Below, in pieces: positions 757-18,969 of a stretch of DNA of 64,000 nucleotides. The notes under the pieces were generated by a model. That model had not been told where the DNA came from, ran no database searches, and saw nothing but the letters and a program-made list of their open reading frames with translations. Numbering within the stretch: the stretch's first letter is position 1; each line of letters starts with the position of its first letter. The position numbers and the translations under genes were made by a program. This DNA is from a bacterium (lineage in GTDB: Bacteria; RBG-13-61-14; DATKZS01), in NCBI GenBank assembly GCA_046484135.1, contig JAWOBU010000017.1, positions 18,696 to 82,695 of the forward strand, in the 5' to 3' direction.

Positions 757-1360
757 TTTGCCCAGCGAAGCGGGCAAACCCGGCCTGCTGAAAGATGCGG
801 GCGTTGCCCCGACCAGGGGGAAGACAATCCGAATCGCAAGGGCGTCATGGTGACATGGGTCTGAAGGAAGCGACAGGAAGTGAGCGGCACACAGCGCAAG
901 CGAACCTCATTCGGCGGCGCAGGCGGGTAAGCGTGCTAAATAGCGTGAGGCCGGATTCATGGCGATGAGACAAGGATAAACAGGAGCCGTATACGAGGCC
1001 CGTACGTACGGTTCTGTGAGAGGGCTTGGGCGGGCACGATCAACCAGCCTCACCCTACTCGATCCGCGCCCGCGAGCGCAAAGACAAGCAAAGAAAACGT
1101 AAGAACAAGACTTGCAACTTTCTTCATGGTTCTCCTTATTACCCAGACGATGTTTTATGCGACACTTCTTCTGCCGGCCGAGCGGGTATGATAACATGAC
1201 ACGATCTTCGGAGAGCTTCTTGGAAAAGGAAGAAGATTGAGATGGAGGCGAAGTCTCTGGATAGCGGGGACGATCTCCCGTTTTGTTTTATCGAGACCTG
1301 GAGGTCTCTCCCGCTTTTTATCTTCGCTTTTTGCAAGAAGCTTCGGACATTAGGCAAAAG

Positions 1361-3025
1361 ATGCGGACAGTAGAGCTAGAAGGAGTGGGTTTCAAGTACC
1401 TGCGCTCAGAAGACCGGGCGCTGCGGAAGATAGACCTGTCCTGTGCCGAGGGCGAGCGGACAGCGATCATCGGCAGGACCGGCGCGGGCAAGTCAACCCT
1501 TCTCCGGTGCTGCAACCGACTGGTTCCGGCGAGCTACAAGGGAGAATTCCAAGGCACCGTCCGGCTTCTCGGTGAGGACGTAAGTGATAAAAAGCCGTTC
1601 GAGCTCGCGGCAAAGGCGGGCATGGTTTTACAGGACTTCGAGAGCCAGCTTTTCTCGACCACCTGCGAGCAGGACGTGGCGTTCGGGCCGGAGAACCTGG
1701 GACTTCCCCGCGATGAAATCAGACAACGGATCACTAACTCCTTGCGCGCTGTGGGGCTTGAAGACCTGCGCCGCCGCGATTCATCCACCCTGTCCGGCGG
1801 GCAAAAGCAGAGGCTGGCCATAGCCTCCGTGCTTTCGTTGAACCCTTCAGTGCTGCTTTTGGACGAGCCGGTTACCGACCTGGACGCGGAAGGAAGGGCG
1901 GACATAGAGTCGCTCACCGAAGATCTCTGTCAACAGGGCTTCACCGTAATCATGGCCGAGCATGAAACCGGCCTCCTCCAGCACGCGGACCGTCTTATCG
2001 GCCTTGATGGCGGAGACAAAGTCCTGGACGCGCCTTGCCGCGAGGTGTTGTGGAAGCCGGCCGAGCTCGAGCGGCTGGGGGTAAGACCGCCCGACCTGGT
2101 CGTCATCATGGACGGCCTCGGTCTTTCCGAAAGGCCGAGGGACATAAACGAAGCCGGGCGGCTCTTGCACGAGAAGGGGTTTACTCTGGAAACATTGCAA
2201 GAGGCTGAAGGCGCAGGGAACCAAGGGCCGCCTCTCATAAGCATGGAGGACGTTCATCACACCTATCAAAACGGAGTAGAAGCTTTGTCCGGCATAAGCC
2301 TTGATATCAAGGAAGGCGAGTTCGTGTCGGTGCTCGGCAGGAACGGCTCGGGCAAGACCACGCTGGTAAAGCATATTAATGGTCTTCTAAAGCCAATCCG
2401 AGGTGAAGTAAAAGTAGATGACAAAGACACGCGGGAGGCGCGGGTGAGCGAGCTTGGCCGCATGGTCGGGTTTGTTTTCCAGGACCCGGACCACCAGATA
2501 TTCGCGGGCCGGGTGTTTGACGAGGTCGCGTTTGCGCCGCGCAACTTCGGCTTCGGGGAGAGCGAGGTGAGGGAAAGGGTCGGCCGGTCGCTGGAGCTGG
2601 TGGGCTTGTCTCATAAGGAAGACGCCGATCCTTTCCTGTTGACCAAGGGGGAAAGACAAAGGGTTGCCTTGGCTTCGATCATTGCCGCGGACCCGCCGGT
2701 GATAGTCATGGACGAGCCCACCACCGGCCTTGATTACCCGGCCCAGCGCGCGGTCATGGACCTGCTGAAAGAGCTCAACCACAAAGGAACCACCGTGATC
2801 ATGATTACCCACGCCTTATGGGTAGCAGCGGAGTACGCTGACCGTTGCGTTCTTCTTCATGAAGGCCGGGTTTTAAAGGAAGGCCCTGCCCGGCTGGTGC
2901 TGACCGAACAAGAGTTGTTGAACAAGGCGGGACTGGCTATGCCGGAGGCCGCGGCGCTCGGCCTTGCCATGGGCGGTCGCGTTCTCACGGCAGAGGAATT
3001 TCTGGCCGCAACAAAAAAGGAGTAG
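1361..3025 (+). CDS. ECF-type ABC transporter ATPase with two fused ATP-binding domains (EcfA1-EcfA2 / CbiO-like). Alternative TTG start at 1283
   Basis: Two Walker A motifs (GRTGAGKST, GRNGSGKTT), two ABC signatures (LSGGQKQR, LTKGERQR), two Walker B (LLLDEP, IVMDEP). ATG at 1361 gives MRTVELEGVGFKY. Confidence 0.85.
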   Translation: MRTVELEGVGFKYLRSEDRALRKIDLSCAEGERTAIIGRTGAGKSTLLRCCNRLVPASYKGEFQGTVRLLGEDVSDKKPFELAAKAGMVLQDFESQLFSTTCEQDVAFGPENLGLPRDEIRQRITNSLRAVGLEDLRRRDSSTLSGGQKQRLAIASVLSLNPSVLLLDEPVTDLDAEGRADIESLTEDLCQQGFTVIMAEHETGLLQHADRLIGLDGGDKVLDAPCREVLWKPAELERLGVRPPDLVVIMDGLGLSERPRDINEAGRLLHEKGFTLETLQEAEGAGNQGPPLISMEDVHHTYQNGVEALSGISLDIKEGEFVSVLGRNGSGKTTLVKHINGLLKPIRGEVKVDDKDTREARVSELGRMVGFVFQDPDHQIFAGRVFDEVAFAPRNFGFGESEVRERVGRSLELVGLSHKEDADPFLLTKGERQRVALASIIAADPPVIVMDEPTTGLDYPAQRAVMDLLKELNHKGTTVIMITHALWVAAEYADRCVLLHEGRVLKEGPARLVLTEQELLNKAGLAMPEAAALGLAMGGRVLTAEEFLAATKKE

Positions 3026-3049
3026 AAGGGGGGACCAAGACAAGTAAAG

Positions 3050-3829
3050 ATGTCGTTTGTCTTCTATATCGAGCGGGAGAGCTTCTTTCACCGGCTGCAC
3101 CCGGTAACCAAGATAGTTCTGCTTGTTCTCGGGTTTGCCGCGGCGCTGGTGCTGGAGCGTCCTTTGTATATCCTTTTGCTCTGGCTCATCTTCGCCTGGG
3201 CGGCAAGAGGCACGGGAGTGTTCCAGAGCCTCCGCCGGGTGTGGTGGCTTCTGTTCTTGATTGCGCTGGCGAGCTTCGGCATCTGGAGCGTCGCATACCA
3301 TGGAAAGACCGTTCTCTTCGAGCTCGGGCCTTTCAGCGCAACCAGGGAAGGAATGCTCTTCGGCGCGGGTATGGGGCTTCGTCTCGACCTTATGATCTTC
3401 TGCGGGCTCGTATTCCTGGCCACCACCACGGTCGAGGACTTCACTTACGGGCTCACCAGGATGGGGCTGCCCTTCCCGGTCAGTTTTTCACTGTCCCTCT
3501 CCTTCCGGCTGGTGCCCCTGTTTGGGGACACGATAAAAAAGATCATGGACGCGCAAAAAGCACGCGGGCTTGACCTCGAGTCCGTGAACGTCTTTCGAAG
3601 GATGCAGGGGTATGTTCCGCTTTTGGTGCCGGTCTTTTCCAGCGCCCTGCGCAAGACCGACCAGCTTGCGGTGGCGCTCGAGTCGAAAGGCTTCGGCCTG
3701 CCCGGTCCGCGCGGAAACTACTTGGAGTACCGGGCGGGAGCAAGGGACGCTGGTGCATTGCTCGCCATGATACTTATCATCGCCGCCGAGGTCTGGATCA
3801 GGCTGCAAGGGATGGGAGCGGTAAGCTAG
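3050..3829 (+). CDS. ecfT: ECF transporter transmembrane T component (EcfT/CbiQ family)
   Basis: 259 aa polytopic membrane protein immediately after the duplicated ATPase. RBS aaaaaggag upstream. Confidence 0.8.
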   Translation: MSFVFYIERESFFHRLHPVTKIVLLVLGFAAALVLERPLYILLLWLIFAWAARGTGVFQSLRRVWWLLFLIALASFGIWSVAYHGKTVLFELGPFSATREGMLFGAGMGLRLDLMIFCGLVFLATTTVEDFTYGLTRMGLPFPVSFSLSLSFRLVPLFGDTIKKIMDAQKARGLDLESVNVFRRMQGYVPLLVPVFSSALRKTDQLAVALESKGFGLPGPRGNYLEYRAGARDAGALLAMILIIAAEVWIRLQGMGAVS

Positions 3830-3996
3830 CGCCATGTCAACCGCGACTGAAGCCGTTCGCACGGCTGGACGGCCTTGCTTTAAAATGGAGGTTCTTGTGA
3901 TATGATGAGGGGCGGTTTTACGGACTTGGTTTTACAGGCGGTGAACTGAAGGCCGGCGGAGTAGGGGCGCGGCCACGGCTTGAATGGGAGAGTTCG

Positions 3997-5811
3997 ATGG
4001 AAGAGAAGAGCATCCCCGAAAAATTCTACAAGATGTCACAAGAGCATCCCGGCAGGACCATTTTCCGGAACAAGGAGAACGGGGCCTGGCGCGACATACC
4101 GTGGTCCGAGGTCTCGACCGCGGCCACGGAGATAGCGAACGGGCTGGCCTCGTGGGGGCTGGCTCCGGGAGAGCGGGTGTCCATCCTGTCCGAGAACCGG
4201 CTGGAGTGGATTTACTGTGACTTGGGCATCCTTTGCGCCGCGGGCGTCACCGTAACCATATATCCTTCCAACCTTCCCCACGAGATCGAGCACATTGTCA
4301 ACGACTCGGGCTCGCGGTTTATCGTGGTCTCCGGCGAAGGCCAGCTTGAAAAGCTCGCGGACCGCAAAGAGACCATGCCCGGCCTTGCCGGAGTGATTTC
4401 CATTGACGATGTCAAAGACCCGGCAGATGATGTGCTTTCCCTCGCCAAGCTCCGCGAGAAAGGCCGCGACTACGGCGAGTCAAATCCGGACGAGATAAAA
4501 AACCGCGTCCAAAACATAGACCCCGACGACCTGTGCACCATGGTCTATACCTCGGGAACCACCGGACCGCCCAAGGGAGTGATGACAACCCACAACAACA
4601 TCCTGTCCGTGTACAGGGCCATGGACGAAATCTTGAGTATTGACAAGGACCATGACTCCACGTTGTCCATCCTTCCTTACGCCCACGTTTACGAGCGGAT
4701 CGGCGGGGTCTTTAACGGCATGTTCTCGGGCATCACCATGTCCCTTTGCGAGGGACTCGAGAAGATAGCGGAGAACATCCAGGATGAAAAACCCACCATT
4801 GTTCTGGGAGCGCCCCGCCTGTACGAGAAGATGTACTCCGCCATCCAGCAGAACATCCAGTCGGCCGGTCCCGTAAAGCGGGGCCTTTTCGAGTGGTCGG
4901 TAAAAGCGGGCCGGGAAGCGAGCCCCTACCGGCTCTCCGGCAAGCCCATGCCTCTGGGCCTTCGAGTTCGAAACGCCATTGCCGGCAAGCTGGTCTTCAA
5001 CACCTTCAAACAGCGCTTCGGCGGCAGGATCCGTTTCTTCGTGTCTGCGGCCGCGCCCCTGTCCCGCGAGATCATCGAGTTTTTCCACGCCCTGGACATC
5101 ATGATCATCGAGGGATGGGGCATGACCGAGACCAGCGCGCCCAGCACGGTGAACCGGCCGGACAACATCCGGTTCGGGAGCGTGGGGCAGGAGATTCCGG
5201 GCTGCGAGGTCTCGATAGCTGACGACGGCGAGGTCCTGGTGCGTGGGGACAACGTGTTCAAGGGCTACTACTCGAAGGACGGGCCTATCCGGGAGGACTT
5301 CAACGATGAGGGCTGGTTCCACACCGGCGACATCGGGAGGATGGACGAGGACCGGTTTCTTTACATCACCGACCGCAAGAAGGACATCATCATCACCGCG
5401 GGCGGCAAGAACATCGCTCCGCAAAACATCGAGAACACCTTCAAGAACGACCTTTACATCTCCGAGGCCCTGGTCTTCGGCGACCGGCGCAAGTTCCTGG
5501 TGGCACTGTTCACCCTGGACGAGGAAGCCATCAAGGAATGGGCAAACCAACAGGGCATCGCCTACAAAGACTTTGCCGAGCTTACCCAGAAACCCGAGAC
5601 CTACAGGCATATCGAGTCGCGGGTCCGGGAGATAAATAAGACCCTTGCCAAGCACGAGTCCATCAAGCGCTTCCGCATCATGGACCGACAGTTCGAGCAG
5701 GACGCGGGCGAGGTGACCCCCACCATGAAGCTCAAGCGCAAGGTCCTGAACGAAAAGTTCGCGCCGCTTTTTGAAGAGATGTACCAGGGATTGGAGGACG
5801 GGGTCCTTTAA
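3997..5811 (+). CDS. Long-chain fatty acid-CoA ligase (AMP-forming)
   Basis: 604 aa; AMP-binding motif YTSGTTGPPKGV; TGDIGRMDEDRFLYITDRKKDIII; C-terminal TPTMKLKRK. Confidence 0.85.
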   Translation: MEEKSIPEKFYKMSQEHPGRTIFRNKENGAWRDIPWSEVSTAATEIANGLASWGLAPGERVSILSENRLEWIYCDLGILCAAGVTVTIYPSNLPHEIEHIVNDSGSRFIVVSGEGQLEKLADRKETMPGLAGVISIDDVKDPADDVLSLAKLREKGRDYGESNPDEIKNRVQNIDPDDLCTMVYTSGTTGPPKGVMTTHNNILSVYRAMDEILSIDKDHDSTLSILPYAHVYERIGGVFNGMFSGITMSLCEGLEKIAENIQDEKPTIVLGAPRLYEKMYSAIQQNIQSAGPVKRGLFEWSVKAGREASPYRLSGKPMPLGLRVRNAIAGKLVFNTFKQRFGGRIRFFVSAAAPLSREIIEFFHALDIMIIEGWGMTETSAPSTVNRPDNIRFGSVGQEIPGCEVSIADDGEVLVRGDNVFKGYYSKDGPIREDFNDEGWFHTGDIGRMDEDRFLYITDRKKDIIITAGGKNIAPQNIENTFKNDLYISEALVFGDRRKFLVALFTLDEEAIKEWANQQGIAYKDFAELTQKPETYRHIESRVREINKTLAKHESIKRFRIMDRQFEQDAGEVTPTMKLKRKVLNEKFAPLFEEMYQGLEDGVL

Positions 5812-12306: not shown

Positions 12307-12496
12307 TCGAGCCGGCGGTGGACTTTAGAGGGATGCAGTCGGTGAAGTTCCCCCAAAATTTCTCGTGTTACTCTCGCGTCCTCTTTGAAAAAGCACAGAT
12401 GCCTCGGGGCTGAAGTGAAAATGGAAAAACGCACAAGCTGCCGGGGCGTGCATGAGCCGCGGACTGTGGTGTAGGCCATGACTCCTTTTCGCAAGC

Positions 12497-12713
12497 CGGC
12501 CTGCACAACCCCCGGAAGAGGGGGTGACGTCCATGGCCGGTACGCGAATTTGGCCCGCACAACCCGCGGAAGATGGCCCGCACAACCCCCGGAAGATGGC
12601 CCACACAACTCCCGAAAGATGGCCCGCACAACTCCCGAAAGATGGCCCACACAACTCCCGAAAGATGGCCCACACAACTTGTTGTGTGGGTGATTGAAGA
12701 TCATGGGAGAATC
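12497..12713. repeat. 23-bp tandem direct repeat array (one degenerate copy, then six tight copies of ggcccRcacaacYcccgRaagat) ending in a perfect palindrome
   Basis: Six consecutive 23-bp units at 12552-12689. Upstream degenerate copy at 12497-12519. The final unit converts into the palindrome cccacacaac-tt-gttgtgtggg (12692-12713). Confidence 0.85.
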
Positions 12714-12816: not shown

Positions 12817-12840
12817 GCCCACACAACAAGTTGTGTGGGC
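12817..12840. repeat. Second copy of the palindrome gcccacacaac-aa-gttgtgtgggc
   Basis: Perfect 11-bp arms, about 105 bp downstream of the first palindrome. Adjacent 5-bp stem hairpin cagac..gtctg. Confidence 0.8.
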
Positions 12841-13004: not shown

Positions 13005-13784
13005 TCAAGCGAGCATGCGGTCCAGGAAATCCAGGATTTCCAGGACCCCTTCGGTCTCTGCCTTGTTTGCTATCAACACGGTGCCGGAGATGAGGTCAGG
13101 AGCTTCCATCAGGGGAACGGCGTTCCTGCCCGCTTTCTCGAGCAGCGGCCGCAGTTCGGTGGCAATGTTGGCGGGCGCCAGCGAGAAATGAGAGTCGGCG
13201 AGCAGGTCCTGGTCGTTCATGGAATCTGCGACCCCGATGATCTCCCGGTCGCCCGCTACCGCGGCCAGGCCGGTGTACTTGTTGTAGCCCACCGGCAGGA
13301 TGTCCACGGCCACCGACGAGTAAGTAACCTGCACCCGGTCATGAAAATTCGAGTCCCCCACAAACCCTTCGATCTTCTCATGCAAAGAACGCGGATCATC
13401 GCTGAACATGGAAATGGTGGTAAGCCGGTGCGCGAAGTAATTGATTTCCGGAAAAGACTGCGCCCGGAGCTGTCCCTCCAGCTCCCAGATGGTCTTGAGC
13501 TCTTCCTTGGTGGTCAGAATCTTTTCGGTCTCGCCGTCCGGGCTCAAGGAGCAGCCCGTCTCGAGAACGTAGCCGTCCACCTGTTCGAGTATCTCGGGCG
13601 GGACCTTCTCTTTTACGAACTTAAGATCGTTGCCGGTGCAGATAAACCGGCTGATCCGGTCTTTTATACGGGCCAGCCCTTCACTGACCATGTTGACCAG
13701 CTCGGGACGGATGACCTCGCCCGGCTCCAGCAGCGTTCCGTGTAAGTCAAGGCCCAGTATGTAAGCGGGTTCTGTTTCTACCAT
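13005..13784 (-). CDS. HAD-superfamily hydrolase (subfamily IIB / Cof-SPP-like)
   Basis: 259 aa; motif I LGLDLHGTLL (DxH instead of DxD); motif IV GDSMNDQDLL. Confidence 0.7.
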   Translation of the reverse strand: MVETEPAYILGLDLHGTLLEPGEVIRPELVNMVSEGLARIKDRISRFICTGNDLKFVKEKVPPEILEQVDGYVLETGCSLSPDGETEKILTTKEELKTIWELEGQLRAQSFPEINYFAHRLTTISMFSDDPRSLHEKIEGFVGDSNFHDRVQVTYSSVAVDILPVGYNKYTGLAAVAGDREIIGVADSMNDQDLLADSHFSLAPANIATELRPLLEKAGRNAVPLMEAPDLISGTVLIANKAETEGVLEILDFLDRMLA

Positions 13785-14524
13785 TCTTCTCTCATCAGTT
13801 GGTTTACTACTTTTCCGACCCGGTCCTGGAGCTGGTTGGGGGACACCGACGACCCCTTGTTGATGTACATGGCGGGCGCGCAGTGAAGCAGGACCTTGCG
13901 GAAGGTTTCGTCACACCTTTTGGACGTAAAAAACAGGATGGGAACATTATCCATATCCTGGGCCTGTTCATGGGCGCGCATGGCCACCGCGGAGCTGATG
14001 CCGTTCAACACCGGCATCTTTACGTCCATTACCACCAGCCCGATCATGGTCTTAATGTCGCGTTCCCGGATGTAACGGCCCAGGAACTCGTAGCCGTTCT
14101 TGCAGGGGATCACCCGCTCGGTAAGGCCCTGCTCAATCAACGTATCGTTCAGGATCGCTGAAATGAGCGAGGAGTCCTCCACCGTGATGACCGTCTGCAA
14201 AGGAGGGCCTTCCGAGACCGGCTCCGGCTCTTCCAAAAGCTCGCCGCCCGCCTTTTGCGGCGTGGACATGGCGCTCGGAAGATCGGGCATCACGAACTCG
14301 GAGCCCGAGCTCTCCTCCGGCCGGAAATCCCCCGGCGACGTGCTGGGCCGGGAAGGAAGCCGGGAAGGATCGGGAAGCGTCTGCGGCTGTTTAACCGTGC
14401 CCAGATAAGAGTGGCAGTGAACGCATTGAAGAAGGTCTTCTCCTTCTATCCCGATGCTCACCCGTTCTACCGGGACCTCCTCGCCGCAGCTTATGCAATA
14501 AACCTTCTCCGGAACCTTGTCCAT
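13778..14524 (-). CDS. Response regulator with an N-terminal zinc-ribbon and C-terminal CheY-like receiver, no output domain
   Basis: CISCGEE...CVHCHS (CxxC x2) at the N-terminus; receiver signature TVEDSSLI...VVMDVKMP...FFTSK. Overlaps the HAD gene by 7 nt. Confidence 0.75.
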   Translation of the reverse strand: MDKVPEKVYCISCGEEVPVERVSIGIEGEDLLQCVHCHSYLGTVKQPQTLPDPSRLPSRPSTSPGDFRPEESSGSEFVMPDLPSAMSTPQKAGGELLEEPEPVSEGPPLQTVITVEDSSLISAILNDTLIEQGLTERVIPCKNGYEFLGRYIRERDIKTMIGLVVMDVKMPVLNGISSAVAMRAHEQAQDMDNVPILFFTSKRCDETFRKVLLHCAPAMYINKGSSVSPNQLQDRVGKVVNQLMREEW

Positions 14525-14624: not shown

Positions 14625-14653
14625 TTGACCAAAGTAAAAATCTTTAGTACAAT
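14625..14653 (+). promoter_or_regulatory. sigma70 promoter TTGACC-17-TACAAT for the cytochrome/porin operon, giving a leader of about 280 nt
   Basis: ttgacc 14625-14630, 17-nt spacer, tacaat 14648-14653. Confidence 0.45.
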
Positions 14654-14804
14654 TCTTCCAGTCTCCGAGTCGTTCTTCCCTACAGCAGGAGAAAATGCCA
14701 AGGGAGGCGACCGAAAGGCCGCGAGGGAAACCTCGCGACCCCCCGTGCTTGGAAAGGAGATGTGAGGCCACGGCTTATACAAGCTCGTGGACTGCGCATT
14801 ACAC

Positions 14805-14831
14805 GGCTCTCCGGGGGAGGGCCGTTTTTTT
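14805..14831 (+). promoter_or_regulatory. Terminator-like hairpin + U-run inside the 5' leader (candidate attenuator or riboswitch expression platform)
   Basis: ggctctcc-ggg-ggagggcc stem followed by gttttttt, about 105 nt upstream of the ATG at 14937. Confidence 0.4.
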
Positions 14832-14936
14832 GTTCGTGCCTCCTTTCTTCTCCTGATGTAAGGGCCGGCCCGGAGAAATGTATATATACAAAGTGGGGCG
14901 ATCAATCAATCTTCGGGAGAAAGAAGGGAGGAAGTT

Positions 14937-16220
14937 ATGAAAAGGAATGAATGGAAAAGGAAAACATTTGTCTTACTGACAGTCATGTCTTTTGCAATAG
15001 CAGGAGGCATGGTATTTATCCAGGGCTGCGGTTCTTCTGATGACGGCAGTGGTGACATGGTCTGCTCGTCGCGGGCCTACAAGGGGCACGCTTCGGACCG
15101 GGACATCAACAACTTTGTTCAGGTATATCCCCACACGGTGGGGACCCGGCTGGACGACTGCCAGACCTGCCACACCGGAGGAGAGATCACCGTAACAGAA
15201 ACCGAGGGCAACACCACGGAAGTTGAGACCGAATGGAAGAACTCTTGCGATTATTGTCATTACATCCCCTATCCGCCGGAGCCTCACAGCATAAGCGGCG
15301 AGACGGTTACCGGGTATCCCAAGACCTATTACGATACCTTGAACGGCTACGGCAAGGACTACATGGACAATGGCCGGGACAAGGGCGCCTTGACCACCAT
15401 CGCCGGTCTTGACAGCGACGGGGACAGCTTTTTAAACCACGAGGAGATAGCGGACCTCCGTTACCCGGGGGACTCCGGCAGCAAGCCCGGACAAAAGCTT
15501 TGTCCCATGCGCACGGTCACCGTATCCGAGCTCAAGGGCATGACAGCTCATTCCCAGTTTATGCTGGCCAACACCACCAAGCAGCAGTTCGACTTCTACG
15601 CCAACTGGAAGGGAGTAAAGATCATAGACATCCTGCAAGGAGAAAGCGTAGACCTTAGCGGCGCGAAAAGTATTGATATCCTGGCGCCGGACGGTTTCAC
15701 CAAGTCCTTCAGCGTAAGCGAGATCACGGACCAGTACCCTTACCATAAGTTTTTCAGCGGCTTCGGGGCGGCTGATCTCGGCAGCGACTGCGCCTTTGTC
15801 GAGTATCCGGCTGACACCCGCGGTTATGCTTACGGCGACACCATCACTGATGACCAGTACCATATCCTGGCCTACGAGCGCGAGGGACAACCCCTGGAAG
15901 AATCTTACCTGGACCCCTCTTCCGGCAAGATCGGGGGGGAAGGACCGCTTCGCAATATCATTCCGCCGGGGGCTACGGACGACCAGTACAACCAGCCCGA
16001 TCGCGGCAAGTACGCGGACACCAGCGGCTGTGGTCTTCCAGAGTGGGACTATGACTTCAACAAGGACCACAACGCTCACAACATGGTCAAGGGCGCGGTG
16101 ATCATCCGCATCCAGCCCATGCCGACGGGTTGCGAGGAGTTCGACATCAACAACGGCGGCTGGGCCCTGATTGACGCGGGCGAGCTTCTGATCTACGGCC
16201 ACGGCGTCACCGCGGAGTAA
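14937..16220 (+). CDS. Diheme c-type cytochrome lipoprotein with Ca-binding-like DxDxDG segment and a C-terminal domain of uncertain fold (possibly sulfite-oxidase-family Moco-binding-like)
   Basis: Signal peptide + lipobox-like IQGC; two CxxCH (CQTCH, CDYCH); DSDGDSFLNHEEIADL; strong RBS aagggagg. Confidence 0.75.
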   Translation: MKRNEWKRKTFVLLTVMSFAIAGGMVFIQGCGSSDDGSGDMVCSSRAYKGHASDRDINNFVQVYPHTVGTRLDDCQTCHTGGEITVTETEGNTTEVETEWKNSCDYCHYIPYPPEPHSISGETVTGYPKTYYDTLNGYGKDYMDNGRDKGALTTIAGLDSDGDSFLNHEEIADLRYPGDSGSKPGQKLCPMRTVTVSELKGMTAHSQFMLANTTKQQFDFYANWKGVKIIDILQGESVDLSGAKSIDILAPDGFTKSFSVSEITDQYPYHKFFSGFGAADLGSDCAFVEYPADTRGYAYGDTITDDQYHILAYEREGQPLEESYLDPSSGKIGGEGPLRNIIPPGATDDQYNQPDRGKYADTSGCGLPEWDYDFNKDHNAHNMVKGAVIIRIQPMPTGCEEFDINNGGWALIDAGELLIYGHGVTAE

Positions 16221-16237
16221 ACAGGGCTGGTAATACG

Positions 16238-17389
16238 ATGAAAAGAAGTGTGTGGATAGCGACAGGTGTTTTTGTCCTTCTTTTCTCCCAGGCATTAGAT
16301 GCGGGGATCAAGGCGGGCCTGGAAGCCAACGCCGGCTTCTGGTGGGTCCTCCAGGAAGAGGTCGAAAACGGAGAGCTGCAGGCCGGCACCAGGGACACGG
16401 CGGCACAGGAGGCCTCCGGATTCAACTTCAAGCAGGGCCGCCTGGGTGTACATTTCGGGACAGATAACGGCAAGCTGGAAGGGGTCTTCCGCATCCGGCT
16501 GGAAGAGCGAATGGACATCATTGACTGTTACGGTATCTTCCATGCCGCGCCGTGGATGAGCTTTTACGTGGGCCAGATGAAGATTCCCTCTACCCGTGAG
16601 GTCCTGAAAAGGGACCACATGACTGATTTTGTAACCCGCACTACCTTTGCGCAAAACGTGGGCGACTTCTCTCTTGCCAAGACACCTTACATATCATCGC
16701 TCATGAACGCCTGGAGCCTTAACCGCGACCTCGGGATCGCAGTTAAAGGACAGGTGCCGGACCGGGAAAGCCCGTTTCTCAACTATTACGTAATGGTCGG
16801 AAACGGCGCAGGCGCCGGCCGCTACACCGGAGGCAAGGAGTCCAGCGAGTTTTTTTACACCAACAACTTCGGGGATTATTACTACGGGGGCCGCCTCGAG
16901 ATTTCACCGTGGGACTGGCTTATGGTGGGCGGCCACATGAGCAGGAACCGGCATGAGGACGCGATCATCCAGGACAAGAAGACGGTGGTGGACCTGGAAA
17001 GGGAGGTCTGGACCGCGGACCTCGAGCTCAGGGCTCCATGGGGGACCCGGCTTTATGGTTTTTACGGCGAGGGCTGGATGGAGGACTACTTCTTTTCCCA
17101 GGACTACGAGTTTGACTACCACGGATGGGGATGCTGGCTGGTCCAGGAGCTCATGGACGGAAAACTCGAGCTTGCGGCCCGGTACGACACCTTCACCACC
17201 GAGTTTCAGAAGGACGGGTATCCGGTCTCCCGGAACAACACCACTTACGGGATCAACTGGAGACCAAACCCCTCCTTCAGGCTTCAAGTAAATTACAAGC
17301 ACAAAGAAACCGAGTGCGATTACATGGAAGACCTGGACGATGATCTCCTGGTCATGAACATGCAGTATATTTTCGACACCTGGCAGTAG
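16238..17389 (+). CDS. Outer-membrane beta-barrel (porin-like) protein
   Basis: 383 aa, signal peptide MKRSVWIATGVFVLLFSQA, alternating amphipathic beta-strand pattern, aromatic-rich C-terminus ...YIFDTWQ. 17 nt downstream of the cytochrome gene. Confidence 0.55.
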   Translation: MKRSVWIATGVFVLLFSQALDAGIKAGLEANAGFWWVLQEEVENGELQAGTRDTAAQEASGFNFKQGRLGVHFGTDNGKLEGVFRIRLEERMDIIDCYGIFHAAPWMSFYVGQMKIPSTREVLKRDHMTDFVTRTTFAQNVGDFSLAKTPYISSLMNAWSLNRDLGIAVKGQVPDRESPFLNYYVMVGNGAGAGRYTGGKESSEFFYTNNFGDYYYGGRLEISPWDWLMVGGHMSRNRHEDAIIQDKKTVVDLEREVWTADLELRAPWGTRLYGFYGEGWMEDYFFSQDYEFDYHGWGCWLVQELMDGKLELAARYDTFTTEFQKDGYPVSRNNTTYGINWRPNPSFRLQVNYKHKETECDYMEDLDDDLLVMNMQYIFDTWQ

Positions 17390-17600
17390 TTGTAACACTG
17401 AGAAAAGGGGCCTGTCTTTATGAAGGCGGGCCTCTTTTTTTAAGAGCTTGAGTTAGGTACGCTTAACTTTCCTGGAGCGCTGTGGTACAATAATCGAGAT
17501 TTTGGCAAAAGAAACACTAGAGATGCAAATTTACTAAAAGCAAGTTTTTCGCGGCTTAGGCCGCTCGCCCGGATGAAATCATTTTACAGGAGGAAGTGAG

Positions 17601-17945
17601 ATGAAAAAGGTAGTAATCGTAGGCTGTGGCGCGTACATGGACAGCGGCTACGGCTGTCCCGGCGAATGGAGATGTTTAAAGGCCGCGGCTTTGGGAGAAG
17701 GAAACTTTGAGGAGCCGGTCCAGGTAGTGGGCTTTGTCAAATGCGAATGTCCGGGCAGAAGCGCGGCCCCCAACGTGGGCATGACCAAGAAGCTCTCCGA
17801 GGTCGAGCCGGATGCGGTATATCTGTCATCTTGCCTGGTCAACGCCAAGCCGCCTTGTCCCTATGCGAGCGCGGACGATCTGGCAGGGGCCATTCAAAAA
17901 AAGACCGGCCTTACCGTGAAGCTGGGCACGCACGAGTATCACTGA
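17601..17945 (+). CDS. CGGC-domain protein
   Basis: 114 aa; VVIVGCGAYMDSGYGCPGEWRC...VKCECPGR...SSC: cysteine pattern of the CGGC family. Confidence 0.6.
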   Translation: MKKVVIVGCGAYMDSGYGCPGEWRCLKAAALGEGNFEEPVQVVGFVKCECPGRSAAPNVGMTKKLSEVEPDAVYLSSCLVNAKPPCPYASADDLAGAIQKKTGLTVKLGTHEYH

Positions 17946-17969: not shown

Positions 17970-18941
17970 TCATCCTGCCGCGGCTCGTTCCTTTTCCAGC
18001 AGCTCCAACTGGAGCTTCTTCCACTCATGGCCCCGCTCCTGGATTTCCCGGTATGATAGCTCGTCATCCACGTCCAGGGTGGGTCCCGGCCCGATGGTCT
18101 CAAGGATACGACCGGAGGTCTGGAAAAGGCGGCTTATGCGCTTTTCCACCACCGCCACCGGCACATAAGGACGGATCATGTCCCGCAGCCGGTGCCAGCC
18201 GCGGCGGTGGGAGGTCTTGGCGATCTGTAACAGGAAGTAGTAAAACAGGTTGCCGGGAGTGAGGACATAGCGGGAGATGGCGAAGAGTCCGCTGACCACG
18301 TTCCGGAAGTGGCGCTGGTAGCGGAGGTTGTAGATGATGGGCACGTACTTGCCGGTTACCGCTCCCAGGTGCAGCGGCCGGAAGCAGAAGATGTTCGAGT
18401 GCCGCGCGATATACTCCTTGAAGCAGTAGTACATCCACCACTCTCCAGGCGCGACTCCGTGAGGAGTGAACGGCTCCAAGAGGTCCTCCCGGGTAAAACC
18501 GTACACGATGTTGGCGGAATCGAGCGGTGCGGTGCTGATGAAATGATCAATCTCGAAAGGCTCGATAAGAGGAAGGTCGCTGGTAAGGGCGAACACTGCC
18601 TTGTCCGACTCGGGCGAAGACTTTAACTCTTCCTCTGTTGCGCCCTCCCGGTAAGCGGGAAAGGTGGAAAGAGCGCCGTAGTAAATGTTCTCGAAAATGT
18701 CTCTGCCCTGTTCGCGCACATGGAGCGGCTTGGCCGAGGAATAACCGGTAAGGCTCTTCTCAAGCCGGGAGCCGGGACCTATCACGGTTATCGAACTTAC
18801 GGTCTCCGACCGCTCCAGGGCCTCGACCACCCATGTAACGAGCGGCTTCTCCTTATAAAGAAGAAAAGCCTTATTATCTCCCAAAACCGGCACCGCGGCC
18901 TCGCTGTCGCCGGCAAGAACTATGGCGTCCAAAGTCCTCAT
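17970..18941 (-). CDS. Nucleotidyltransferase (MobA-like NTP-transferase fold) with C-terminal extension
   Basis: N-terminus LDAIVLAGDSEAAVPVLGDNKAFLLYKEKPLVTWVVEAL is typical of GT-A NTP transferases. Confidence 0.6.
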   Translation of the reverse strand: MRTLDAIVLAGDSEAAVPVLGDNKAFLLYKEKPLVTWVVEALERSETVSSITVIGPGSRLEKSLTGYSSAKPLHVREQGRDIFENIYYGALSTFPAYREGATEEELKSSPESDKAVFALTSDLPLIEPFEIDHFISTAPLDSANIVYGFTREDLLEPFTPHGVAPGEWWMYYCFKEYIARHSNIFCFRPLHLGAVTGKYVPIIYNLRYQRHFRNVVSGLFAISRYVLTPGNLFYYFLLQIAKTSHRRGWHRLRDMIRPYVPVAVVEKRISRLFQTSGRILETIGPGPTLDVDDELSYREIQERGHEWKKLQLELLEKERAAAG

Positions 18942-18969
18942 CACCCGAAACGTCCTTTGACTATGGCCT

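Follow-up and report, generated by a model that had tools for sequence, protein, structure and literature searches.

The stretch of DNA analysed in this study (referred to as the window) comprises 64,000 nucleotides of contig JAWOBU010000017.1 (GenBank assembly GCA_046484135.1, positions 18,696–82,695 of the forward strand), which originates from a bacterium of the GTDB lineage RBG-13-61-14 (DATKZS01). It carries a pair of genes, separated by a gap of 17 nt, which encode a diheme c-type cytochrome lipoprotein (gene 1) and an outer-membrane (OM) beta-barrel protein (gene 2), located downstream of a riboswitch (Table 1). An earlier inspection of the letters alone (the sequence-only reading) had proposed that this pair might constitute a minimal porin-cytochrome module of the type that conducts electrons across the outer membrane. 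Both open reading frames (ORFs), the short gap and all of the listed motifs were found to be present. The proposal of an electron conduit was not upheld, given the 16-strand barrel, the presence of only two hemes, the lack of an extracellular partner, the riboswitch and the neighbouring genes of tupABC and TunR type. The pair very probably belongs to a regulon responding to starvation for the tungsten cofactor, and the two proteins look like a so far undescribed entry stage for the acquisition of tungsten, not like an electron conduit.

Table 1. Features of the window discussed in the text
Feature	Positions	Strand	Remarks
Group II intron catalytic domain (RF00029)	982–1063	+	Rfam, 44.8 bits versus 40
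580-aa ORF	1283–3025		just 3′ of RF00029
Tandem array of about six 23-nt units	12490–12690		intergenic; consensus TGGCCCACACAACTCCCGAAAGA, 94% matches
Second copy of the 23-nt palindrome GCCCACACAACTTGTTGTGTGGG	12817–12839		149 nt beyond the copy that ends the array
Response-regulator receiver protein	13778–14524	−	divergent from the riboswitch leader
Sigma-70-like promoter, TTGACC-17-TACAAT	14625–14653	+	consensus match only, 10/12 positions
Moco/tungsten-cofactor riboswitch RF01055, P3-less	14651–14775	+	Rfam scan of the window
Intrinsic terminator	14803–14832	+	just after the aptamer; 10-bp stem (7 G-C pairs) at 14803–14825, T7 tail
Gene 1, diheme c-type cytochrome lipoprotein (427 aa)	14937–16220	+	ORF list
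Signal peptide of gene 1	14937–15029	+	lipobox Cys31 at its end (15027–15029); no twin-arginine motif
Heme c attachment motifs	15159–15260	+	CQTCH 15159–15173, CDYCH 15246–15260
EF-hand/TSP3-type Ca-binding loop DSDGDSFLNHEE	15411–15446	+	motif spacing, conservation
C-terminal domain, residues 186–427, Oxidored_molyb-like	15492–16217	+	remote, degenerate; contains GEGP; R339, PDR354–356, C285, C365 and H378-N-A invariant
GEGP motif	15936–15947	+	
Gene 2, OprP/OprO-like OM porin (383 aa, signal peptide)	16238–17389	+	ORF list
Promoter-like site of the CGGC-domain gene	17463–17491		
CGGC-domain protein	17601–17945	+	PF08821, 73 bits; 211 nt 3′ of the porin gene
Operon headed by the second riboswitch	17970–21863	−	
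MobA-like nucleotidyltransferase	17970–18944	−	
HgcAB-like fusion protein	18970–20037	−	NF043039, 371.5 bits versus 285
CpaM, corrinoid-protein-associated methyltransferase	20034–20729	−	NF043040, 276.7 bits versus 180
TupA-like tungstate-binding protein	20793–21668	−	behind the second riboswitch, about 4 kb from the gene pair
Second P3-less RF01055 riboswitch	21726–21863	−	74.6 bits, E = 3.6e-16; heads the convergent operon

The leader of gene 1 is 412 nt long and contains a riboswitch of the molybdenum cofactor (Moco)/tungsten cofactor (Tuco) type, detected with 59.7 bits versus a gathering threshold of 36 (E = 8e-12, model positions 1–135); a custom covariance model scored the same element at 107 bits. 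The promoter-like site is placed for a transcription start at the 5′ edge of the aptamer, and the terminator hairpin was present in both the minimum free energy and the centroid folds of the leader. Judging from the sequence, this combination of aptamer and terminator has the anatomy of a transcription-terminating OFF switch, of which the terminator is likely to be the expression platform. The riboswitch is retained in front of the ortholog of gene 1 in a fully syntenic related locus, L088 (53.5 bits; 77–78% protein identity).

The P3 columns are deleted in the RF01055 alignments of both riboswitches of the window, and P3-less representatives of this class have been shown to segregate with tungsten-cofactor metabolism (Regulski et al., PMC2408646). 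The TupA-like protein encoded behind the second riboswitch had TupA (NF041772) as its sole NCBIfam match, at 244.8 bits versus an equivalog cut-off of 400; it also matched PBP_like_2. This gene is predicted to form part of the same regulon as the gene pair.

The product of gene 1 was identified as a full-length member of the NCBIfam family NF041762, "GEGP motif-containing diheme protein" (427.2 bits versus a cut-off of 300, E = 5e-128; residues 47–423 against model positions 1–358 of 359), and is 100% identical to a protein of that name from a metagenome-assembled genome (MAG) at NCBI. No mention of "GEGP" proteins was found in the literature searched. A single-sequence search against the PDB sequences revealed no relative, the only hits being chance matches to FosB. 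The AlphaFold2 (AF2) model of the protein, computed with 36 sequences, was confident, with a predicted local distance difference test score (pLDDT) of 87. The N-terminus (MKRNEWKRKTFVLL...FIQGC) lacks a twin-arginine motif and ends with the lipobox cysteine.

Conservation within the family was assessed by aligning 113 full-length homologues. All of them (113/113) share the two CxxCH motifs, H51, C285, C365 and H378, and 110 retain the lipobox Cys31, in agreement with the description of gene 1 as a two-heme c-type lipoprotein. The acidic DSDGD loop, proposed to resemble Ca-binding sites, is conserved as well: residues D159, D161, D163, N167 and E170 follow the 1-3-5-9-12 spacing of EF-hands and are invariant or nearly so, and family members gave weak TSP3_bac, EF-hand and Temptin_C matches over this region. 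Each residue of the GEGP motif (G334, E335, G336, P337) is conserved in at least 95% of the homologues; R315, R339, R356, D355, E335 and E400 were also classed as invariant, and K215 as nearly invariant. Given this family-wide conservation, the motifs of gene 1 are evidently not due to chance. The invariant or near-invariant charged residues may make up a site for anions, and the cysteine pair C285/C365 a disulfide. The heme region itself produced a weak Cytochrome_C7 match, as well as weak matches to MtrC/MtrF domains.

The C-terminal domain of gene 1 had been noted for its resemblance to the Moco-binding fold of the sulfite-oxidase family, with a conserved cysteine ligand named as a point to be checked. 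The kinship of the fold was recovered, at a remote level, whereas the molybdenum-ligand cysteine was not. Gene 1 itself gave no match to PF00174 (Oxidored_molyb) at E≤1; among its relatives, 15 of 36 showed sub-threshold PF00174 matches, the best with E = 8.8e-4. A profile of residues 186–427, searched against 1.84 billion representative sequences, retrieved just 330 proteins at E≤1e-3. These included the large multi-repeat surface proteins P0278 (5.7e-26), P0307 (1.3e-17) and P0308 (2.5e-17), which carry bona fide PF00174 domains (125.8, 143.7 and 55.8 bits, respectively). The link of gene 1 to PF00174 is thus transitive, via these three proteins, and the matches to individual repeats are weak and centred on two core motifs, Y-x-G-V-x-x-x-D-L-L...A-x-D-G and G-x-G-P-x-R-x-x-x-P, the latter corresponding to the GEGP motif. 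In a structural comparison with the PDB the top fold match was YedY/MsrP of Escherichia coli, albeit at E = 0.23 and with a template modelling (TM) score of 0.31. No relevant match was obtained with the domain profile against the PDB sequences, and hhalign detected no similarity between this profile and E. coli MsrP, whether MsrP was used singly or together with its close homologues (all but one of the 120 MsrP homologues listed are at least 90% identical, which made them useless for a family profile). A hidden Markov model of the P0278/P0325 repeat units aligned to MsrP over the GxGPxRLxVP motif only. On the basis of these profile links, the domain is a remote descendant of the sulfite-oxidase fold.

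In the E. coli MsrP precursor, the Mo-ligand Cys146 precedes the W-x-G motif by 10 residues and falls at approximately Pfam position 46. The equivalent segment of gene 1, F208–W224 (FMLANTTKQQFDFYANW), as defined by motif alignment and Pfam coordinates and not by structural superposition, contains a cysteine in none of the 113 sequences, and the invariant C285 and C365 are located away from it. Attachment of c-type hemes follows Sec export; pterin enzymes, by contrast, acquire their cofactor in the cytoplasm and leave it through the twin-arginine translocation (Tat) pathway. The signal of gene 1 is of the Sec/lipoprotein type, not Tat; MsrP, in a comparable scan, matched TAT_signal weakly and below threshold (E = 0.2). 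Since the cysteine is missing, the signal is of the Sec/lipoprotein type without a twin-arginine motif and the hemes are covalently bound, it appears very unlikely that this domain holds Moco.

The proteins P0278, P0307, P0308 and P0325 are large secreted or surface proteins with 4–8 tandem short Oxidored_molyb-like units, combined with CARDB, FlgD_ig and fn3 domains; most of the units that were read by eye (in P0278 and P0308) have no Mo-ligand cysteine. This suggests a wider, undescribed extracellular use of the sulfite-oxidase fold without Moco.

The assignment of gene 2 to the OM beta-barrels was confirmed by the Pfam match, the structural model and the structural comparison. The protein has a cleavable signal peptide (MKRSVWIATGVFVLLFSQALDA), as had been predicted; of the aromatic C-terminus predicted with it, only the penultimate residue is aromatic and the last is Gln (...YIFDTWQ). 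PF07396 (Porin_O_P) was matched with 33.5 bits versus a gathering threshold of 20.9, by the C-terminal 77 residues only (303–379), and a precomputed match to this family exists for 46 of the 58 homologues listed. The AF2 model (pLDDT 88.4) contains 16 long strands, with a helical L3 loop (residues 120–145) between strands 5 and 6. At E≤1e-3 Foldseek matched 272 chains of the PDB; nearly all of the ones listed are classical 16-strand porins. The best query-normalised TM score was obtained for OprP (2o4v_A, 0.66; E = 1.5e-12), with OprO (4rjx) reaching 0.64, and porins of the OmpF type were also matched. Pores of the OprO/OprP family are lined by an arginine ladder and a lysine cluster; among the homologues four arginines (R68, R163, R219, R315) do not vary, and R87, R134, K115, R255, R348 and K356 are nearly invariant. 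As modelled, the gene 2 product is an OM barrel of the small diffusion-porin class, equipped with a constriction loop and too small to sheath a cytochrome. From its family and fold we infer that it is an anion channel.

The distribution of the module was analysed in 80 related loci, collected by a pattern scan with one genome per species, whose ORFs were clustered by custom scripts and annotated through cluster representatives. All of these loci are derived from MAGs of about ten phyla (the labels include Krumholzibacteriota, Eisenbacteria, Myxococcota, Planctomycetota, Spirochaetota, Acidobacteriota/Aminicenantes, Gemmatimonadota, Poribacteria and Latescibacterota). Seven of them could not be evaluated (six cut by contig ends, and L044, which has no intact GEGP ORF). 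In 55 of the remaining 73 a porin gene lies directly 3′ of the GEGP gene, which shows that the neighbourhood of the two genes is conserved, a check that the sequence-only reading had itself proposed. A regulator combining HTH_17 and PBP_like domains, which we take to be the architecture of the tungstate-responsive TunR, was found in 30 loci, a TupA-like protein in 19 and a TupB-like permease in 17; PF12727 was also found on a MoeA protein. A covariance model built from six P3-less aptamers, which replaced a strict regular expression that had found only 4 loci, detected the riboswitch in 12 related loci besides the window.

In 40 of the 73 evaluable loci (32/55 with and 8/18 without a porin gene) at least one tungsten link, be it tupA, tupB, the riboswitch or a regulator of the TunR type, lies no more than 6 kb away; the figure is 45/81 when all loci and the window are considered. 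As a tup locus occupies far less than 1% of a genome, this linkage is far beyond chance. In 10 loci tupA adjoins the pair on the same strand, in eight of them together with tupB and a gene for an ATP-binding cassette (ABC) ATPase. The order GEGP–porin–tupA–tupB–ABC ATPase, on one strand, recurs in L026, L030, L031, L034, L060 and L062, the order GEGP–porin–tupA alone in L021 and L023, and in L037 the riboswitch is followed by tupA, tupB, tupC, GEGP and porin genes, all on the same strand. TunR–GEGP–porin and GEGP–porin–TunR are other recurrent arrangements. In Aminicenantes, a dus gene, the riboswitch and tupCBA (in the order tupCBA–riboswitch–dus, on the reverse strand) lie beside a divergent GEGP gene, with no porin. 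The neighbours in L001 are a tungsten-type aldehyde oxidoreductase and ThiF/ThiS, and in L003 an enzyme of the xanthine-dehydrogenase type.

Several further neighbours were recognised by eye. In L009 (labelled Candidatus Eisenbacteria) the GEGP gene adjoins one that reads as a formate-dehydrogenase-type enzyme with a Mo/W-bis-pyranopterin guanine dinucleotide cofactor (1601–4603, − strand), split into a 184-aa N-terminal ORF and one of 799 aa, a split that a putative in-frame selenocysteine codon would account for. In L050 (1637–3325) and L061 (1977–3608), both labelled "uncultured delta proteobacterium", the riboswitch is followed by a gene for a lipoprotein of about 500 aa with apparent kelch-type propeller repeats, then by the GEGP and porin genes; in P0210, also of this family, the C-terminus is fused to an EPTP propeller. 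A propeller may therefore be a recurrent third component.

Some GEGP homologues carry sorting domains of the type IX secretion system (T9SS), and others beta-propeller or CarboxypepD_reg domains. P0247, in which both CxxCH motifs, DSDGD and GEGP are retained, possesses a bacterial surface Ig-like domain and three CW_binding_2 (CWB2) repeats. Its gene lies in a monoderm-type locus without a porin, in the order XdhC (reverse strand), riboswitch (67 bits), ResB, CcsA, fn3/Big_5, GEGP-CWB2 and MoCF_biosynth, i.e. with its own cytochrome c maturation genes and among cofactor genes. The link between riboswitch and GEGP gene is therefore independent of the porin: the diheme protein is the core of the module and the porin an accessory of diderms. 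According to the same locus, the diheme protein acts outside the cytoplasm, in some cases at the cell surface, and before the binding protein; the T9SS tails of the homologues fit such a location. Genes for a "putative sulphite oxidase" behind P3-less riboswitches in S. wolfei were listed as exceptions in 2008 (Regulski et al., PMC2408646), and the GEGP family may explain them.

Taken as a whole, the evidence favours a model in which the pair is an operon of the tungsten regulon that encodes an anion porin for tungstate and an extracytoplasmic redox accessory. When the tungsten cofactor is plentiful, it would bind the aptamer, the terminator would form and the operon would be switched off; when it is low, both proteins would be made. 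The porin of the OprP/OprO type would then offer tungstate (and perhaps molybdate), a tetrahedral oxyanion in short supply, a selective way through the outer membrane, in the same manner as OprP serves phosphate during phosphate starvation. The diheme lipoprotein would act outside the cytoplasm, upstream of TupA; its cysteine-less sulfite-oxidase-like domain could provide a pocket binding an oxyanion or a substrate, and its two c-type hemes could carry out one- or two-electron reactions with the tungsten source. A role that can be imagined, although it is only a plausible guess, is to liberate tungstate that is thiolated or bound to minerals in sulfidic sediments. A transport role can reasonably be assigned to the porin. 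What the diheme protein does chemically is a guess, and any specific version of it is doubtful. This includes the most elaborate one, which we put forward tentatively as possible but not probable: redox-assisted tungsten acquisition across two membranes in anoxic habitats, directly controlled by the riboswitch, in which the diheme protein, at the surface or in the periplasm, would use its gutted sulfite-oxidase fold to turn environmental thiotungstates and mineral-sorbed or reduced tungsten into tungstate, to be admitted by the porin for TupABC.

Several points weigh against the tungsten-uptake model. We know of no characterised tungstate uptake system that needs a redox step, and the two invariant hemes are not explained by simple transport. 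The NCBIfam name of NF041762 carries no function. The OFF logic of the riboswitch was deduced from the terminator alone, and the anion selectivity of the porin from its family and fold, not from pore-lining residues. The preference for tungsten over molybdenum is based on the P3-less correlation and on TupA-like matches under the equivalog cut-off (244.8 versus 400 bits). Finally, 33 of the 73 evaluable loci have no tungsten or molybdenum gene within 6 kb.

The electron-conduit interpretation, according to which the diheme lipoprotein delivers electrons to an acceptor outside the cell, either through the barrel or along it, can draw on the direct succession of a c-type cytochrome gene and an OM barrel gene, on the weak MtrC/MtrF-domain and c7 matches over the heme region, and on the surface targeting (T9SS or CWB2) of some homologues. 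It is largely refuted and in our opinion extremely improbable, because the 16-strand barrel with its internal L3 loop matches OprP, OprO and OmpF-type porins and is not a wide sheath, there are only two hemes, with neither a decaheme or extracellular partner in the operon nor further cytochrome genes conserved among the neighbours, and the barrel is missing from 18 of the 73 evaluable loci and from the monoderm variant; control by a cofactor riboswitch and the tupABC neighbours do not suit a conduit either. SoxD is the diheme cytochrome partner of SoxC, and this precedent speaks for another possibility, a true Moco- or tungsten-cofactor-dependent periplasmic enzyme of the sulfite-oxidase family fused to its diheme acceptor (as in SorAB or SoxCD), with a porin importing the anionic substrate and a riboswitch present because the enzyme consumes cofactor. 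The remote Oxidored_molyb similarity, YedY as the top PDB fold match and the P3-less riboswitches before S. wolfei "sulphite oxidase" genes (Regulski et al., PMC2408646) all agree with it. Such an enzyme is nevertheless quite unlikely in view of the absence of a cysteine from segment F208–W224 (0/113), the lack of any PF00174 match at E≤1 for the window protein and the conflict between post-Sec heme attachment, indicated by a Sec/lipoprotein signal without a twin-arginine motif, and Tat-dependent export of pterin enzymes; moreover, T9SS-secreted or wall-anchored variants are not expected of it, and operons with tupABC suit supply of the cofactor more than its use.

Two other explanations start from the riboswitch. 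The pair could be a cofactor-sparing substitute, i.e. a heme-based extracytoplasmic oxidoreductase replacing a W/Mo enzyme when the cofactor runs short, by analogy with isozymes under B12 riboswitches, the porin again supplying an anionic substrate. Expression at low cofactor is what the riboswitch and its terminator platform imply, and the domain resembles a Moco enzyme minus the Mo ligand, plus hemes. We consider this unlikely, since the repeated placement on the same strand beside tupABC and TunR-type regulators is expected of an uptake component, and since there is neither a candidate reaction or replaced enzyme nor an obvious catalytic metal site, and the two hemes carry little information. 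Riboswitches also often control the uptake of their own ligand, and salvage of the pterin is therefore conceivable: the cysteine-less domain, descended from a pterin-binding fold, would capture extracellular free molybdopterin or tungsten cofactor, which the hemes would hold in the reduced state, and the porin, a member of a phosphate/pyrophosphate porin family, would admit the phosphorylated pterin. This is very improbable, as the inner-membrane transporter encoded nearby is TupABC-like and oxyanion-specific, the pores of OprP-type porins are narrow, Moco is highly labile in the free state and there is no precedent.

The operon behind the second riboswitch is unusual: besides the TupA-like protein, it encodes CpaM, an HgcAB-like fusion protein and a MobA-like nucleotidyltransferase, and contains neither tupB nor tupC. 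Its gene order is retained in L088; there, no riboswitch was found ahead of tupA. The HgcAB-like and CpaM genes were considered as parts of the module and rejected, as HgcAB-like and MobA-like proteins occur in none of the other 80 loci and CpaM, weakly, in two. The operon places a corrinoid methyltransferase system behind a tungsten-cofactor riboswitch. On the other side of the pair, the receiver protein lacks an output domain and has a Cys-rich segment resembling a zinc ribbon at its N-terminus; its divergent arrangement is kept in L088. The gene for the CGGC-domain protein, which has a promoter-like site of its own, occupies the same position there. Elsewhere in the window, an intergenic tandem array ends with a 23-nt palindrome that recurs a short distance further on, and the ORF adjacent to the group II intron catalytic domain may code for the intron-encoded protein.

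OprP and OprO of Pseudomonas aeruginosa are phosphate-starvation-inducible, anion-specific porins. Gene 2 resembles them in its PF07396 membership, its 16 strands and its top TM scores, and the logic is also alike, i.e. a specific anion porin, induced when an oxyanion is scarce and encoded beside the matching ABC importer. It differs from them in sequence (about 13% identity), in being controlled by a tungsten-cofactor riboswitch or TunR-type regulators and not by PhoB, in having a diheme lipoprotein as partner and in its presumed substrate, tungstate. With the sulfite-oxidase family (YedY/MsrP, SorA, SoxC), gene 1 shares the motifs Y/W-x-G-V-x-hydrophobic-x-D-L-L...A-x-D-G and G-x-G-P-x-R-x-x-x-P and the theme of a cytochrome partner (SorB, SoxD), but it has no Mo-ligand cysteine, uses Sec/lipoprotein export instead of Tat, carries covalent hemes on the same chain and scores below threshold. 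The MtrAB/porin-cytochrome conduits likewise have a c-type cytochrome gene adjoining an OM barrel gene; there, the barrel is a wide sheath (about 20–26 strands versus 16 with L3) and 8–12 hemes are present instead of 2, while gene 2 and its partner lack an outer cytochrome and have other regulation and other neighbours. TupABC shares its regulatory elements (the Moco/Tuco riboswitch and TunR) and its loci with the gene pair, but the known system consists only of a binding protein, a permease and an ATPase, with no OM or redox component described in the literature searched, in which no link of tungstate uptake to a porin or a cytochrome was found. Passage of tungstate and molybdate across the outer membrane is attributed to general porins, and we know of no accessory proteins that act before TupA or ModA; the literature searched contained none either.

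Databases already contain each element, i.e. the riboswitch, the porin family and the diheme protein family; no description was found in the literature searched of their combination, in which an OM anion porin and an extracytoplasmic diheme protein on a cysteine-less sulfite-oxidase fold, controlled by Tuco riboswitches or TunR-type regulators, are attached to tungstate uptake. From the distribution of this operon, many anaerobes not yet in culture seem to devote specific machinery to the first steps of tungsten uptake, with wall-anchored versions in monoderm-type organisms. The function-less family NF041762 gains a testable role, and the regulon of the Moco/Tuco riboswitch gains a class of genes. 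The finding also raises the question of why heme redox chemistry should be required for an oxyanion nutrient. If the redox-assisted pathway is true, it would represent the first dedicated OM and redox component of molybdenum and tungsten uptake.

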